Below the pieces are notes generated by a model. The model was not told the DNA's origin. It saw only the letters and a list, made by a program, of their open reading frames with translations, and ran no database searches. Made by a program: the position numbers and the translations under genes. A stretch of 64,000 nucleotides of DNA from Thermoanaerobaculia bacterium (GTDB lineage Bacteria; Acidobacteriota; Thermoanaerobaculia; Gp7-AA8). The stretch is from the NCBI GenBank assembly GCA_035629865.1, contig DASPHC010000055.1:134940-198939 (forward strand), given 5' to 3'. Shown piece after piece: positions 3,558 to 63,835 of the stretch (positions are counted from its first letter, which is position 1; the number at the start of each line of letters is the position of its first letter).

Positions 3558-3643
3558 GATAGGACGAATAGGACTGATAGGACCTATAAGACGTATAGGA
3601 CTCCGATCGTCCTATCAGTCCCATAGGTCCTATCGGTCCTATG
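3558..3643. repeat. Intergenic palindromic repeat cluster (ATAGGAC x4-5 facing GTCCTAT x4)
   Basis: Seen directly. Left-half ATAGGAC copies and right-half GTCCTAT copies form a long imperfect hairpin. The same family is at 7914, 11645 and 43597. Confidence 0.7.
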
Positions 3644-3723: not shown

Positions 3724-5559
3724 ATGGTTACACCCGCCGTGCTCACCCGAAAATTCAAGTTGTTCGTTGCGCTCGCTTTCGTCTGTCTGACGTCCGCGTC
3801 GACGCTCTCGGCTGCGGAGAAGATGCCGCTGTCGCAGGTCGAGAAGGGGATGAAGGGCTATGGCCTGACTGCCTTCGAGGGGACGAAGCTCGAGAAGTTC
3901 GACGTCGAGATTCTCGGCGTGCTGCACAACATCGGGCCCGGCCAGAACCTGATTCTGGCACATGTCGACCATCCGGTCATCCGCCGTGCGGGGGTCATCG
4001 CCGGCATGTCGGGATCGCCGATCTTCCTCGACGGCAAGGTCATCGGTGCGCTCGCGTACGCTTGGCAGTTCTCCAAGGAACCGGTCGCGGGCATTACCCC
4101 GATCGACGAGATGCTCACGCTCTCTTCCCGCCGGCTCGCGCCGAGCGGGGCCACTCCGGCGGGCGCCGTCCCACGCATGACCGCAACCGAGCTCCTGAGC
4201 GCGGTATCGCGGTCGAAGCCGGAAGAGGCCTTCGACAAGTTCATCAAGAACCTCGCCGCACCGGTCAGCGCCGTCAGCGGAGCCAGGCGGATCTCGATGC
4301 CGATGTCGGTCTCCAGCTTCAGCCCGGAGACCGTCCAGCGCTTCTCGCCTTATTTCGAACAGATGGGCTTCGTCGCCGTGCCGAGCGGTACCGCGACGGC
4401 CTCGGCTTCGACCGGCAGCAAGAGCAAGTTCAGCCCCGGCGATCCGATCGGCGCGGTGCTCCTCACCGGCGATCTGAACGTGGCGGCGACCGGTACGGTG
4501 TCGTGGGTCGACGGAAATAACGTCTACGCCTTCGGCCATCCGTTCCTCGACATGGGGGAGATCAACTTCCCGATGGCGACGTCGGAAATCGTGACGGTGC
4601 TGCCCAGCCTGGCCAGCTCATTCAAGTTCTCCAATACCGGCCCGATCGTCGGCGTCCTGCAGCAGGACCGCGCCGCCGGCATCATGGGCGTTCTCGGCGA
4701 GAAGCCGCAGATGATCCCGGTCGAGGTGACGCTCAACGGCTCCGGCCCCGAGCAGGCCTACAAGGTCAACCTCGTCCGTCACACGACGCTCTCGCCGCTG
4801 ATCCTGGCCATGGTCGCCGACTCGGTGGTCGCCAACGCCCAGCGGGCGGCGGGCGAGCGGACGGTGCTGATGGACGCGGAGATCCAGCTCAAGGGCTTCG
4901 AGCCGATCCGCCTCCGCGAGGGATGGGCCGGCGCGCAGGCGCGCCAGTCGATTCCGCAGTACCTCGCCGTGATCTCCGGCTACATGATGTCGAACGAGTT
5001 CAGCCCGACGGAGATCGAGAGCATCAAGATCCGTCTCCATCACGACGACGAGCTTCGCATTGCCCGCCTCATGGAAGCGTCGCTGGTGATGCCGGACAAG
5101 GGCCGCGTCTCGCCGGGCGACGTCGTCAAGGTGCGCACCGTCCTCAAGCCGTTCCGCGGTGAGTCGTTCGTCGAGACCTTCGACGTCCGGATCCCCGAGG
5201 ACCAGCCGGCCGGGCCGGCGTACCTGCTGGTGGGAAGCGGCTCGGTGATGAACGCCGTCGACTTCACACTCGTGCCGCCCGATCCACGGACGCTCCAGCA
5301 GGTCATCGGCGTCCTGGAGCGCCTCCGCCCGGCGACCGACCTCACCGTCGGTCTCTACTCGACCGGTGAAGGAGCGGTGACCTCCGGCGTGTATCTCCCG
5401 AATCTTCCGCCGTCGATGCAGGCGGTGGTCAGTGCGGACACGTCGAACGGACCGCAGGCGGTGGTGAAGTACCACCCCACCAAGCATGACGCCAAGCCGC
5501 TCGGCTACATCGTCGACGGCGCGCTGAAGATCGACCTCAACGTCAAACCCCAGATCTAG
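3724..5559 (+). CDS. Secreted peptidase S55 (SpoIVB-like) family protein
   Basis: Signal peptide FVALAFVCLTSASTLSA. The GMSGSPIF segment resembles the S55 serine-protease core. The ORF is long with consistent codon bias. Confidence 0.55.
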   Translation: MVTPAVLTRKFKLFVALAFVCLTSASTLSAAEKMPLSQVEKGMKGYGLTAFEGTKLEKFDVEILGVLHNIGPGQNLILAHVDHPVIRRAGVIAGMSGSPIFLDGKVIGALAYAWQFSKEPVAGITPIDEMLTLSSRRLAPSGATPAGAVPRMTATELLSAVSRSKPEEAFDKFIKNLAAPVSAVSGARRISMPMSVSSFSPETVQRFSPYFEQMGFVAVPSGTATASASTGSKSKFSPGDPIGAVLLTGDLNVAATGTVSWVDGNNVYAFGHPFLDMGEINFPMATSEIVTVLPSLASSFKFSNTGPIVGVLQQDRAAGIMGVLGEKPQMIPVEVTLNGSGPEQAYKVNLVRHTTLSPLILAMVADSVVANAQRAAGERTVLMDAEIQLKGFEPIRLREGWAGAQARQSIPQYLAVISGYMMSNEFSPTEIESIKIRLHHDDELRIARLMEASLVMPDKGRVSPGDVVKVRTVLKPFRGESFVETFDVRIPEDQPAGPAYLLVGSGSVMNAVDFTLVPPDPRTLQQVIGVLERLRPATDLTVGLYSTGEGAVTSGVYLPNLPPSMQAVVSADTSNGPQAVVKYHPTKHDAKPLGYIVDGALKIDLNVKPQI

Positions 5560-7905: not shown

Positions 7906-7913
7906 CAGCGCTG

Positions 7914-8012
7914 GACGAATAGGACCTATGGGACGAATAGGACTGATAGGACCAATGGGACTCCATGGGTCCCATCGGTCCTATTCGTCCCATTGGTCCC
8001 ATTTGTCCGATA
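7914..8012. repeat. Intergenic palindromic repeat cluster (ATAGGAC/GTCCTAT family, with GGGACC/GGTCCC variant units)
   Basis: Same family as 3558..3643. gacgaataggacctatgggacgaataggactgataggacc faces ggtcccatcggtcctattcgtcccattggtccc. Confidence 0.7.
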
Positions 8013-11645: not shown

Positions 11646-11675
11646 TGGGACCTATAGGTCCTATCAGTCCTATCA
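11645..11675. repeat. Partial copy of the ATAGGAC/GTCCTAT palindromic repeat
   Basis: gggacctataggtcctatcagtcctatc lies between the dppC-like stop and the coaD stop. Confidence 0.6.
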
Positions 11676-12161: not shown

Positions 12162-12272
12162 GCGGCGGGATGGTAGCAGAGGGGCGCCGCACGGGGAAAC
12201 GTCAACAACTTGATGGTCAACGTCTTGACGATCGACGCGGAGCGTCCTAAGATATTGTCATTCAAGTCACTG

Positions 12273-12701
12273 ATGGACTGGGAGGGTGTGATGCGGGATC
12301 AGAGAATTGAAGTCAAGCGCTCGAATCCGTCCGGTGCCCGGGCCACCTCTGGCGCGCCGAGGGGCCGCCTCCTCAACACACTGCTGACCTACCTGCCCGG
12401 CGCGTGGATCGACCCGAAGAACAACGAGCTGATCACGCTCTACCGCCTCCGCTACCGCATGGCCATGGAGGAGGAGAAGTACGACACGGCGATGATCTTC
12501 CTCAACAAGATCCTCGAGCTCGACCCGATGAACCTCGAGGCGAAGCTCTGCAAAGGCGAGATCTACCACCGCTGCCTCGCCGACTACACCCGCGCCATCG
12601 AGCAGTACAACAAAGTGATCCGCCTCTCCGCCGGTGCCAACGAGGTGATCCACACCCGCGCCCGCGCCGCGATGAGCGAGATCATGGAACTGCTCTCGTA
12701 A
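12273..12701 (+). CDS. Hypothetical TPR-like protein
   Basis: TPR-like helices (AMIFLNKILELDPMNLEAKLCKGEIYHR..AIEQYNKVIRL). The start is uncertain and may be upstream at 12210. Confidence 0.45.
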   Translation: MDWEGVMRDQRIEVKRSNPSGARATSGAPRGRLLNTLLTYLPGAWIDPKNNELITLYRLRYRMAMEEEKYDTAMIFLNKILELDPMNLEAKLCKGEIYHRCLADYTRAIEQYNKVIRLSAGANEVIHTRARAAMSEIMELLS

Positions 12702-12725
12702 GGCAGCAGCTCTCTCAAGCCACCA

Positions 12726-13005
12726 AAATCAATGGATGCGTCATCGAAATCGACGGCCGCGCTGTCGAATTGATGGCTGCGTCATCGAAATTGGTAGCCA
12801 TGTCATCGAAATCGATGGTGATGCAATCGAAATCGATGGCGATGCAATCAAAATCGATGGCCATGCAATCAAAATCGATGACCATGCAATCGAAATCGAT
12901 GGCGATGTCATCAAAATCGATGGTGATGTCATCGAAATCGATGACGATGTCATCGAAATCGATGGTGTTGGCATAGAAAACGATGGCGGCGCATGAGAAA
13001 TCGAC
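12726..13005. repeat. Tandem direct repeat array, 21-bp unit x about 13 (consensus ATGCAATCGAAATCGATGGYG)
   Basis: Seen directly. Contiguous head-to-tail 21-mers with point variants, open in all six frames. Located in a convergent intergenic gap. Confidence 0.9.
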
Positions 13006-13053
13006 CGCAGCGCCGGCAAAACGCTGCACTTCGCCACGAAGCCGTTGGCGCGC

Positions 13054-14061
13054 TCAGCGATCGCGTTCCATCACGAAGTCGAGCGCCATCTCCAGTGTTT
13101 CTTTTGCCGGCGACGCCGGGAACGGGTCGAGGGCGCGGCGGGCGCGGTTGGAGTAGTCGCGGGCGATCTCGCGGGTCTGGTCGAGCGCTTCGTAGCGGTG
13201 GACGATGTGCAGGATCTCGGCCGGGTCGACGCCGTCGAAGGTCTTGTTCGAGGCGACGCGCGCGATCAGCTCCCGCTCCCGCGCCGTCAGGTGCGGCATG
13301 GCCAGGATCAGCGGCAGGGTGACTTTTCCTTCCTTCAGGTCGGAGAGGGCCGGCTTGCCGAGGACTTCGGTGCTGGAGGTGAAGTCGAGCAGGTCGTCGA
13401 TCAGCTGGAAGGCGACACCGAGGTTGTAGCCGTACTCTTTGAGCGACACCGCCGAGGCCTCGGGGAGGTCAACCAGGTACGCCGGGATGCGGCAGGTGGC
13501 GCCGAACAGGGCGGCGGTCTTCCGGCCAACGATGTCGAAATAGTCCTCGACCGAGATGTCGCTGCGGCCGTTCTGCTCCGTCCCGAGGATCTCTCCCTCG
13601 ATCATCTTGATGGTCGCGTCGGAGAGGAGGCGCAGGACCTCGAGATTCCCCTCGCCGAGGGCCATGTGCATCGAGTGCATGAAGATGTAGTCGCCGACCA
13701 GGACGGTCAGGTTGTTGCCCCAGCCGTAGTTCACCGAGGTGCGGCCGCGACGGACGTCGGCCTCGTCGATGATGTCGTCGTGCACGAGCGTCGCGGTGTG
13801 GATGAACTCCACGACCGCGCCGTAGGTGACGTCGCGGATGCCGTCGTAGCGGAGCATCTTCGAGACGAGGAGCAGCAGGGCAGGGCGGAGACGCTTCCCG
13901 CCGCCGCCGAGGATGTGCTCACCGACGTCGGAGATGGTGGCGATCTTGGAGCGGAAGTTGTTGCGCAGCTCTTCTTCCACAAGCTCCAGTTTTGGGGCGA
14001 TCAGCTCGAGGACACGCTCCGCGTATGCTGTCTGCCCGTTGAGAGTGCGAGGAGCGGTCAC
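13054..14061 (-). CDS. ispB: Polyprenyl diphosphate synthase (octaprenyl/heptaprenyl-type)
   Basis: First and second Asp-rich motifs LVHDDIIDEADVRRG and FQLIDDLLDF. Confidence 0.85.
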   Translation of the reverse strand: MTAPRTLNGQTAYAERVLELIAPKLELVEEELRNNFRSKIATISDVGEHILGGGGKRLRPALLLLVSKMLRYDGIRDVTYGAVVEFIHTATLVHDDIIDEADVRRGRTSVNYGWGNNLTVLVGDYIFMHSMHMALGEGNLEVLRLLSDATIKMIEGEILGTEQNGRSDISVEDYFDIVGRKTAALFGATCRIPAYLVDLPEASAVSLKEYGYNLGVAFQLIDDLLDFTSSTEVLGKPALSDLKEGKVTLPLILAMPHLTARERELIARVASNKTFDGVDPAEILHIVHRYEALDQTREIARDYSNRARRALDPFPASPAKETLEMALDFVMERDR

Positions 14062-28725: not shown

Positions 28726-28754
28726 GGGACGAGGTCCTCAGAACGAGAGATGAG

Positions 28755-28838
28755 AGATGAGAGATGAGCGATGAACGGAGAGCCGCTGAGCGTTCATCGC
28801 TCATCTCTCCTCGCTCATCTCTCGTACCGCGCAGCATG
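28755..28838. repeat. Palindromic repeat (GAGAGATGAGCGATGA family)
   Basis: gagagatgagagatgagagatgagcgatgaacg faces cgttcatcgctcatctctcctcgctcatctctc. Family copies at 56224 and 63787. Confidence 0.7.
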
Positions 28839-31440: not shown

Positions 31441-31503
31441 TGTTAAGCTCGCAGCTCTCAGCTCGCAGCTCTCAGGGGGTTTTTGCTGAGAGCTGAGAAC
31501 TGC
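31441..31503. repeat. AGCTCGCAGCTCT repeat with a hairpin
   Basis: agctcgcagctctcagctcgcagctctcag ... ctgagagctg. A related copy flanks the pckA terminator at 22303..22392. Confidence 0.5.
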
Positions 31504-37720: not shown

Positions 37721-37800
37721 ACAAAGGCAGAAGGCAGAAAGCAAAAGGCAGAAGGTTCACATCCTTCTGCCCTCTGCCTTCTGACTTCTGCCTTTGACTT
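37721..37800. terminator. Long perfect hairpin (GGCAGAAGG repeats) downstream of hpf; putative terminator
   Basis: aaaggcagaaggcagaaagcaaaaggcagaagg-ttcacat-ccttctgccctctgccttctgacttctgcctttg. A related motif is at 40637..40668. Confidence 0.5.
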
Positions 37801-40623: not shown

Positions 40624-40695
40624 GCGCGGCGGAGAGTATCAGGTGAGGGCAGAAGGACGAAGGCAGAAGGCAGAAGTGGGAAAAGAGTTACAGCG

Positions 40696-50291: not shown

Positions 50292-51221
50292 ATGAGCAGG
50301 AACGAGGAAGTCGCACGAGAGTTCTGGAACCGTGAGGTCCACACCCCCACGCACTCGAACTGGATGGCCCACCCGCTGGTGCGCGCCTACATCAACCGCT
50401 CCATCGCCGGAGACTCCGGCCAGTGGCCGATGGACTGGCTGGAGACGTGGCTGGCCGGGCGGCGGTTCAAGCGCGGCCTGAGCGTCGGCTGCGGCGCCGG
50501 CTCGCTGGAGCGTGACCTGATTCGCCGCAACCTGTGCGAGCAGATGGACGCCTTCGACGGCTCACCGGAATCGATCCGGGTGGCCATCGACGAGGCGGCG
50601 AAGCTCGGCTACGGCGACCGCATCCACTACCGCACCGGCGATTTCAACGAGCCGCAGCTCCCGTCCAATACGTACGACATCGTCTTCGTCCACCAGGCCA
50701 TGCACCACGTGGCCAAGCTCGAAAAACTCTACCGGGCCATCATGAAGACGCTGGCGCCGGACGGGCTGCTCTACCTCGACGAGTACATCGGCCCCTCGCG
50801 CCACGAATGGACGGAGCAGAACTTCGCCCCGATCCAGGGCGTCTTCCAGTCCATCCCGCGCGAGAAGCGGAACCTCGACTCCCTCCTCCTCCCGATCCAG
50901 GTCCACGACCCCTCGGAGGCGATCCGCTCCAGCGAGATCCTGCGCGAGCTGGCAGTCGGCTACGACACCCTCGTCCGCCGCGACTACGGCGGCAACGTCC
51001 TCTCCATCATCTACGGCCAGGTCGAAGACACCGACGCCATGACCGAGCACCTGATCGTCGAGGAGGAAAAGCTGCTGCGCGAAGGGATGGAGCCCTTCCT
51101 CTCGATCATCATCGCCAAACCAAAGCGAGGGATCGCCGGAGCGGTGGCGCGAGGACGGTATTTCCTGGAACCGAAGCTCAAGCGGATCGGGCGCGAGGTG
51201 CGAAAAGTCGTGTCGCGTTGA
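50292..51221 (+). CDS. Class I SAM-dependent methyltransferase
   Basis: Motif I LSVGCGAGSLE and an acidic post-I residue. Confidence 0.7.
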   Translation: MSRNEEVAREFWNREVHTPTHSNWMAHPLVRAYINRSIAGDSGQWPMDWLETWLAGRRFKRGLSVGCGAGSLERDLIRRNLCEQMDAFDGSPESIRVAIDEAAKLGYGDRIHYRTGDFNEPQLPSNTYDIVFVHQAMHHVAKLEKLYRAIMKTLAPDGLLYLDEYIGPSRHEWTEQNFAPIQGVFQSIPREKRNLDSLLLPIQVHDPSEAIRSSEILRELAVGYDTLVRRDYGGNVLSIIYGQVEDTDAMTEHLIVEEEKLLREGMEPFLSIIIAKPKRGIAGAVARGRYFLEPKLKRIGREVRKVVSR

Positions 51222-51388: not shown

Positions 51389-51680
51389 CGGACTCATCGA
51401 TGAGTAGCGCGGACTCATCGGTCGGTCGGGATCGACTCATGGATCGGTCGGGATCGACTCATGGATCGGTCGGGATCTACCCATGGATCGGTCGGGATCG
51501 ACCCATGAATCGGTCGGGATCGATCCATGGATCGGTCGGGATCGACCCATGGATCGGTCGGGATCGACCCATGGATCGGTCGGGATCGACTCATGGATCG
51601 GTCGGGATCGACTCATCGCCGGTCGGGATCGACTCATCGGCCGGTCGCGATCGACTCATCGGCCGGTCGCGATCGACTCA
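51389..51680. repeat. Tandem direct repeat array, 22-bp unit x about 13 (consensus CGGTCGGGATCGACYCATGGAT)
   Basis: Seen directly. Head-to-tail 22-mers with decay at both ends and two GATC per unit. Located in a convergent intergenic gap. Confidence 0.9.
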
Positions 51681-51681
51681 C

Positions 51682-52377
51682 CTAAGCGCCGATCCCCAGC
51701 TCCGTCATCACCTTCTTCATGTCGTTCCAGACGTCCTTCTTCGCCGAAGGGGTCCGGAGCAGGTACGCCGGGTGGTACGTCGGCATCAGTTTGATGCCGT
51801 TGTAGTCGAGCCACTGGCCGCGGACGGCGGAGATGCCGTAGCTCTTCTCCGTCAGCGACTGCAGGCCGAAGCGGCCGAGGGTGACGATGACTTTGGGCTG
51901 GATCAGCGCGACCTGGCGTTGGATGAAGGGGCGGCAGCTTTCCAGCTCGTCAGGCTCGGGATTGCGGTTCTCCGGCGGGCGGCATTTGATGACGTTGGCG
52001 ATGTAGACGTCGTCGCGGGTGAGCTTCATGGCCTTGATGATGTCGGTCAGCAGTTGTCCGGCGCGGCCGACGAACGGCTCCCCCTTCTTGTCCTCGTCAA
52101 AGCCCGGAGCCTCGCCGATGAACATCAGGTCGGCGTTCGGGTTGCCGACGCCGAAGACGACATTGGTGCGCGTCCCCGCGAGGCGGCACGACTGGCAGTT
52201 GTGGGCTTCGAGTCGGAGGGCGTCGAAGGCGCCGGGCTGGTCTCCCGCTGCTTCCAGCGCTGCGTCCCCCATTGCTTCCACGGCTGCTTCAGTTTTCGTC
52301 CGGACCGGGGTGAGGTCGAGATGGGTATATCCAAGCTCGCGGAGGTAGGCGAGCTCCTGCAGGACGTCGGGATTCAT
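51682..52377 (-). CDS. Uracil-DNA glycosylase, family 4
   Basis: 4Fe-4S cysteines CQSCRL...C and motifs GEAPG and HPAYLLR. Confidence 0.85.
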
Positions 52378-54348: not shown

Positions 54349-54359
54349 GGCTGCGCCGC

Positions 54360-54452
54360 CGTTATCGGTTGTCCGTTGTCAGTTGTCCGAACCGACGACG
54401 CTCGGAGGGCCGTGCATCGACAGACAACCGACAACTGACAACTGTTTTCAAC
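54360..54452. repeat. Inverted-repeat element (GTTATCGGTTGTCCGTTGTCAGTTGTCCG ... CAGACAACCGACAACTGACAAC)
   Basis: Third copy of the family seen at 14590 and 35780. Confidence 0.7.
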
Positions 54453-56209: not shown

Positions 56210-56223
56210 AAATTCGAGAGATG

Positions 56224-56300
56224 AGCGATGAGAGATGAGCGATGAACCTCGGGGAAGGCTCTGCTCATCTCTCATCGCTCATCGTTCATCTCGCTCCTGT
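56224..56300. repeat. Palindromic repeat (GAGAGATGAGCGATGA family)
   Basis: gagagatgagcgatgagagatgagcgatgaac faces gctcatctctcatcgctcatcgttcatctc. Confidence 0.7.
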
Positions 56301-63786: not shown

Positions 63787-63835
63787 CGAGAGATGAGAGA
63801 TGAGCGATGAGAGATGAACGATGAGAGATGAACGG
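63787..63835. repeat. Palindromic repeat (GAGAGATGAGCGATGA family), direct-repeat-rich copy
   Basis: gagagatgagagatgagcgatgagagatgaacgatgagagatgaacg immediately upstream of the msbA start. Confidence 0.65.

Follow-up and report, generated by a model that had tools for sequence, protein, structure and literature searches.

A 21-bp tandem array between convergent genes of a Thermoanaerobaculia genome, probably a non-coding minisatellite

A tandem array of 21-bp period lies in the convergent gap between a small TPR-like gene and an ispB-like gene of a soil bacterium of the Thermoanaerobaculia (Acidobacteriota), and is in our judgement probably a non-coding, VNTR-like bacterial minisatellite of fast turnover, set in the 3′ spacer between two housekeeping genes and known to vary between lineages. 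The array occupies 12719-13033 of the window, by which we mean the whole 64-kb stretch of DNA analysed, and was confirmed there with both TRF and manual phasing. Support for this assignment comes from a homogeneous centre flanked by decayed, GC-rich edges; presence or absence of the array in near relatives, where the locus is gained, lost and remodelled; divergence that outpaces four-fold sites; and a lack of coding constraint. To these can be added that slippage-type repeats are common in the genome, which also holds a 22-bp array of 12 copies and at least eight repeat hairpins.

Between the stop codon of the plus-strand TPR-like gene (12701) and that of the minus-strand polyprenyl synthetase gene (13054) the gap measures 352 bp, and most of it is filled by the array, much as the earlier note on this DNA had described. 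TRF reports the repeat at 12781-12987 (period 21, 9.9 copies, 84% matches, score 211) and again at 12740-12988 with a period of 42, and manual phasing resolves 15 units from 12719 to 13033, for a total of about 13-15 copies. The consensus of the unit is GTCATCGAAATCGATGGCGAT (the unit is also written ATCGAAATCGATG), and eight consecutive units at 12802-12969 match it at 16-20 of 21 positions; those at the edges retain only 7-17 of 21, with progressive decay and a rise in GC content on both sides, and one of them (12761-12780) is 20 rather than 21 bp long. A tandem array thus stands where thirteen near-identical 21-mers had been described, with the correction that eight units are near-identical and the rest degenerate; likewise, the ATCGAT site that had been assigned to each unit is found in eight of them and is absent from the others. 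All units run in direct orientation. The lag-21 autocorrelation of the gap is 0.67, and further peaks at 6, 15 and 27 in the array point to motifs spaced about 6 bp apart inside the unit (ATCGAA, ATCGAT, GGCGAT). The array also stands out in composition, at 46% GC vs. 64% for the window. Searching the window for the unit with up to three mismatches returned 6 matches against 0.01 expected, all of them within the array and none anywhere else in the 64 kb, and a second copy of the unit family was found neither in the window nor in the 96 retrieved loci. The units are contiguous and lack the unique spacers of a CRISPR layout, and no MITE-type terminal inverted repeats or target-site duplications were found around the array.

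Table 1. Coordinates of the array, its flanks and the repeat hairpins in the window, and the state of the orthologous gap in relatives
Feature	Sequence	Position or gap length	Strand	Remarks
Whole 21-bp array with degenerate edges	window	12719..13033	none	15 phased units, one of 20 bp; manual phasing, TRF, autocorrelation
Homogenised core, 8 units	window	12802..12969	none	one ATCGAT and a same-phase AAA/AAAA tract per unit, as read from the sequence
Left degenerate units	window	12719..12801		GC-richer; include the 20-bp unit 12761-12780; align unit by unit with the L093 array
Right degenerate units	window	12970..13033		consensus matches drop from 16 to 7 of 21
Example near-palindromic core	window	12804..12817	none	matches both strands, with 2 mismatches on minus
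Left flank, small TPR-like protein gene	window	12210..12701	+	TPR matches under the Pfam cut-off
Right flank, ispB-like polyprenyl (octaprenyl) diphosphate synthase gene	window	13054..14061	-	PF00348, E 5.9e-67
7-/9-nt repeat hairpins	window	3559-3642, 7913-8008, 28745-28823, 31446-31500, 37724-37800, 54359-54444, 56216-56290, 63788-63834		
Half elements of 7-/9-nt repeat hairpins	window	11646-11675, 40648-40676		
Orthologous array	L093	737-905		contig breaks inside the array
Orthologous array	L096	1127-1508		decayed, inverted ends
Gap with 21-bp array	window, L096	352-382 bp		21-bp arrays
Gap without content	L004, L013, L095, L097, L098	4-5 bp		no content
Gap without content	L007, P0241 contig	19-24 bp		no content
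Gap with strong hairpins	L001, L002, L005, L008	73-147 bp		z -5.5 to -10.5; some arms made of 7-nt tandem repeats
Gap without folding	L094	73 bp		z +0.8
Gap with other DNA	L006, L010, L011	470-730 bp		in L010 including a 59-bp array of 3.9 copies

The genes around the array are housekeeping ones, with coaD, TPR, ispB, yajQ, lolA, ABC transport, panE and others in the neighborhood, and no par, rep, regulator or DNA-binding genes were found near it. BLAST against plasmids and phages in "distant" mode gave no similarity, and a pattern scan of viral contigs gave 0 matches. The ispB product of the window is 100% identical to a protein from a Thermoanaerobaculia MAG at NCBI and 83% identical to its best matches among GTDB species representatives. 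The 5′ end of the TPR-like ORF has probably been set too far out: most homologues are 130-136 aa long and begin with MRDQRIEV, which makes ATG 12291 the probable true start. At its other end a small hairpin (CTGCT...AGCAG, 12690-12709) predicted by minimum free energy spans the stop codon, and a self-complementary sequence resembling it is visible at the same place in the related contigs L093 and L094.

Across the family the gene order yajQ-ispB / TPR-coaD is kept and the length of the gap is highly variable, from 4 bp to as much as 726 bp (Table 1). Orthologous 21-bp arrays were found in two other assemblies, both of them JGI soil metagenome contigs. In the first, L093, whose TPR protein is 94% identical in amino acid sequence, seven units are collinear with the left part of the window array, with two 1-bp indels. 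Nucleotide identity between the two arrays is 78.6%, vs. 89.5% at the four-fold sites of the adjacent TPR gene, so that the array changes at roughly double the rate of such sites. The second, L096 (ispB 92% identical at the amino acid level), spans the complete gap, which is 382 bp long and consists of some 17 units in heavy decay, with a GC content of 60% and a lag-21 autocorrelation of 0.51; the units at its right end are inverted relative to those at the left, yielding 61-nt arms that are 72% complementary and a predicted large hairpin. The array is absent from both L094 and the P0241 contig, which at 94.6% ispB identity to the window are closer to it than L096 is, so that a single origin requires at least two losses and the alternative is repeated gains. 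All more distant relatives also lack the array, their gaps being either 4-147 bp long, often with short-repeat hairpins, or 470-730 bp long and occupied by other DNA. Among the gap stretches of these relatives (L010 4749-4976, L008 1068-1214, L011 5400-5594), a REP-like palindrome, GTGGCACAGACACTCYTGTCTGTGC, has copies in the ispB/TPR gap of L008, L010 and L011, and in L006 and L011 a small extra ORF has apparently been inserted in the same gap.

Together, these data fit the VNTR and slipped-strand options, two of the three that the earlier note had listed without a choice among them: presence and unit content vary among relatives, the edges decay, and divergence exceeds that of four-fold sites. 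The units are arranged head to tail and fall within the range of about 10-100 bp that is usual for minisatellites, and length and content vary at the same locus between related genomes. We propose that a short palindromic motif would have been amplified by replication slippage or unequal recombination, with the hairpin-forming capacity of the units favoring amplification; ongoing slippage and conversion would keep the middle units alike, and point mutation under the GC pressure of the genome would erode the ends and, in some lineages such as that of L096, the whole array. The array would persist because repeats that arise between convergent genes interrupt no promoter, which makes such a spacer a 3′ "safe haven." Structured repeats collect in this gap throughout the clade, as they do at many other gene 3′ ends, and no sequence-specific function is required. 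A long imperfect hairpin available to both transcripts would be a by-product, and may stand in for the short-repeat hairpins that relatives have in the gap.

Several observations count against this minisatellite reading. Selection could equally have given rise to the period of exactly two helical turns, to the palindromic cores and to the strong self-complementarity (z -4.5 to -7); L096 keeps the 21-bp register despite heavy point substitution; and an array with identical unit variants at a different locus, that of L087, is more than local slippage alone can account for. The last of these came from a metagenome pattern scan, which returned 11 stretches, with L087 the only one clearly related. 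There, a 21-bp array of 10.4 copies (L087 1-262, Ga0190275_10000151) sits at a contig end, the contig stopping inside the array, and shares identical unit variants with the window array, for example GCAATCGAAATCGATGGCCAT. It lies downstream of another gene, encoding a membrane protein without a homologue in the window, and abuts an ATAGGAC 9-mer repeat that is also present in the window, L005 and L092. The locus is non-homologous, so that the unit family extends beyond a single locus. A second stretch, the PVC-like metagenome contig L086 (60% GC), contains two different degenerate 21-bp arrays (4540-4830 and 12460-12680), each beginning shortly past the stop codon of the upstream gene and one of them with a AAATCGATG core; it is probably unrelated, sharing only that core and not being self-complementary (z -1.8). 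The remaining stretches, L081-L085 and L088-L091, are mostly chance matches or coding matches for acidic DFD/IEID-type peptides.

Among known repeat families, MIRUs are elements of about 40-100 bp found inside operons, which can carry small ORFs overlapping the neighboring genes. The array resembles VNTR and MIRU loci in consisting of head-to-tail, intergenic, non-coding repeats tens of bp long, in its lineage-variable presence and content, in its homogenised centre and degenerate edges, and in a possible second locus; it differs from MIRUs in its 21-bp palindromic unit, in that the variation seen here is between lineages, and in having only one known extra locus, which is in another genome. 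The MIRU-VNTR loci of Mycobacterium tuberculosis are minisatellites with copy-number variation (PMC3635867).

Each unit is built from a 14-bp near-palindrome, CATCGA-AA-TCGATG (6-bp inverted arms around a 2-bp centre), followed by a 7-bp spacer, an anatomy that, together with the self-complementarity of the whole array, had previously been missed. Perfect copies of the 14-bp core are also present at 12930-12943 and 12951-12964, and inverted half-sites recur every 21 bp in 8-10 units. Because its units are palindromic, the array is self-complementary and both strands fold well: relative to shuffled sequences, RNA folding of the window gap gave z -4.8 on the plus strand and -4.5 on the minus strand, and the array core alone z -6.05, with values of -8.0 for the L087 array and -6.8 to -7.0 for that of L096. 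The array may act as a terminator-like hairpin. In the main rival explanation, selection for self-complementarity would have made it a working 3′ structure, in RNA or DNA, akin to REP/BIME elements. Set between convergent transcription units, it would terminate transcription in both directions, stabilise mRNA 3′ ends or be a target for supercoiling or gyrase, replacing at this site the short-repeat hairpins of relatives. We regard this explanation as unlikely. In its favor, the two strands of the gap score far above shuffled sequences in folding, as do the core and the L087 and L096 arrays; the inverted ends of L096 match the architecture of the 7-/9-nt repeat hairpins of the window; where the gap of a relative measures 77-147 bp, it holds a strong hairpin (z -5.5 to -10.5); and all such elements seen are downstream of gene 3′ ends, with none in a divergent gap. 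Yet units that are palindromic make an array self-complementary in any case, the stems measure only 6 bp and are relatively AT-rich, and a consensus scan for intrinsic terminators (GC-rich stem plus U-tract) gave no canonical site; the single weak stem that it returned within the array (6 bp, minus strand) is no more than shuffles yield. Furthermore, L004, L007, L013, L095, L097, L098 and the P0241 contig have gaps of 4-24 bp without structure, and the gap of L094 does not fold; structure at this site is therefore dispensable.

REP and BIME elements of enterobacteria and pseudomonads are imperfect palindromes clustered at gene 3′ ends and linked to mRNA stabilisation, termination and the binding of gyrase or IHF. 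The array shares with them the imperfect palindromes in a 3′ or convergent spacer, the indel polymorphism between relatives, the folding of both strands and, in L096, the inversion of the two ends. It departs from them in its direct units of fixed 21-bp pitch without alternation, in a palindrome that is short (14 bp) and relatively AT-rich, and in being present at one locus in 64 kb rather than as a high-copy family. A broader variant of the structural explanation, which we consider quite improbable, would unite the 21-bp arrays (window, L093, L096, L087) with the 7-/9-nt hairpins in one Thermoanaerobaculia-specific REP/BIME-like class that spreads between 3′ sites and is kept since its structure, or a dimeric protein or gyrase bound in phase at every second helical turn, insulates convergent transcription units.

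The regular spacing of the palindromes lends itself to yet another explanation, the third option of the earlier note, in which a dimeric protein would bind CATCGA-AA-TCGATG on one DNA face every two helical turns, making the array a phased platform of the centromere, iteron or nucleoid type; we deem this very improbable. In the same 8-10 units, 6-bp inverted half-sites flank a 2-bp centre at a constant 21-bp interval, each unit has an A3-4 tract in the same phase, and an AT-rich island with phased A-tracts (46% GC in a 64% GC genome) could attract a nucleoid protein. When the window is compared with L093, core positions have a small nominal lead in identity over spacer positions (83% vs. 75%). 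Neither the comparison with relatives nor the gene context supports such a platform: the cores are eroded in L093 and L096, the array is missing in equally close relatives, no isolated 14-bp palindrome occurs elsewhere in the 64 kb with up to two mismatches, and the neighbors are housekeeping genes, with no par, rep or regulator gene and no similarity to plasmid or phage records. The iterons of plasmids and the ParR-type centromeres (parC) are direct repeats of about 10-22 bp bound cooperatively by Rep or ParR. The array is like them in that its direct repeats follow one another at roughly two helical turns and contain a dyad-symmetric core, and unlike them in its chromosomal housekeeping context, in having no rep or par genes nearby and no plasmid or phage similarity, and in not being kept in close relatives.

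That the array might instead encode a small heptad-repeat protein is most improbable. Two ORFs over it are candidates, one of 104 aa on the minus strand (13029-12715, IDFDDI repeats, 25 nt downstream of ispB) and one of 86 aa on the plus strand (12736-12996, IEIDGDA repeats). All six frames had been described as open; two of them contain 6 and 8 stops and are closed, and the other four, with 1-2 stops each across the gap, stay open through the core. Start codons, which had been said to be lacking, do exist (ATG 12736, GTG 13029, GTG 13037), and the companion claim holds in that no convincing Shine-Dalgarno sequence lies upstream of the array ORFs. Gene callers annotate such ORFs as well: JGI gene calls cover the arrays at L093 792-905 and L096 1024-1329 and 1357-1512, and NCBI accession numbering suggests that a CDS was called in this gap in the source MAG. 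The JGI calls are almost certainly spurious. The orthologous arrays differ by single-base indels, those of the window (with its 20-bp unit) and L093 being different, and the frame drifts in L096, so that no reading frame is conserved and the window, L093 and L096 share none. GC3 of the array frames is 0.19-0.65, vs. 0.73-0.92 for the genes of the window, and a gene here would be missing in close relatives. A Pfam search with three array ORFs gave no match, and the four open frames, concatenated, matched none of 5.8 billion proteins at E<=1e-3, a negative result that is weak evidence because HMMER bias filters may suppress repeats. Rfam 15 likewise gave nothing at the gathering score, only chance sub-threshold matches to miRNA models (26 bits vs. 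98). With no conserved ORF, no gene-like codon usage and no homologues, the array is non-coding, in agreement with the earlier view that no genes lie in the overlapping ORFs. The source is a metagenome-assembled genome from short reads, and the L093 and L087 assemblies both end inside related arrays; an assembly artefact, by which copies would have been collapsed, expanded or joined as chimeras, is nevertheless scarcely credible. No exact repeat within the array exceeds 24 bp and each unit variant can be told from the others, so that any assembler k-mer above 24 follows a unique path and resolves the copy number, and independent assemblies from other samples have arrays at the same site, that of L096 being spanned in full. 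Both the coding and the artefact explanation, the latter named in the earlier note as a possible refutation, are effectively excluded.

The minisatellite-like array is not the only repeat in the 3′ spacers of the window. A second array at 51412-51680, composed of 12.3 copies of a 22-bp unit (GACTCATGGATCGGTCGGGATC, 93% matches), fills the convergent gap between a SAM-methyltransferase gene (50292-51221, plus strand) and a uracil-DNA glycosylase gene (51682-52377, minus strand). Its unit bears no relation to the 21-mer, is absent from the 96 retrieved loci and folds weakly (z -2.8). In addition, at least eight intergenic hairpins of the window have inverted arms composed of 7- or 9-nt tandem repeats, with dG from -27 to -74 kcal/mol and arm repeats that include ATAGGACNN, GAGAGAT/GAGCGAT, AGCTCGC, AAGGCAG and GGTTGTC. 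These 7-/9-nt repeat hairpins are all downstream of gene 3′ ends, none in a divergent gap, and relatives feature hairpins of similar style built from other units (GGTTGGC in L001, TTTTCGG in L005). They look like a clade-wide, REP/STRR-like terminator class.

STRR stands for short tandemly repeated repetitive sequences, heptanucleotide elements of heterocystous cyanobacteria. The window and its relatives are similarly rich in intergenic 7-/9-nt tandem repeats, 21 bp corresponds to three heptads, and the array has an internal spacing of about 6 bp; the short repeats here nonetheless differ from STRRs in forming inverted-arm hairpins, the 21-mer is longer and composite, the phylum is another one, and there is no sequence similarity. 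The term STRR is used in PMC2670836.

By itself the array brings no new mechanism and is of more interest as an example of repeat richness. The clade fills gene 3′ spacers with slippage-derived structured repeats, among them the 7-/9-nt hairpins and the 21-, 22- and 59-bp arrays, in what looks like an undescribed Acidobacteriota counterpart of REP/BIME or STRR elements. We found nothing relevant in the literature on 21-bp intergenic arrays or on repeats in Thermoanaerobaculia, and the richness of their intergenic 3′ regions in slippage-built structured repeats is apparently undescribed. For annotation, such arrays matter in that gene callers put spurious ORFs on them and assemblies break in them; if polymorphic within a species, the array would be usable as a strain marker for uncultured Thermoanaerobaculia. 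More broadly, the structured 3′ repeats of this clade could inform our understanding of transcription termination or supercoil management in a phylum with almost no genetics.
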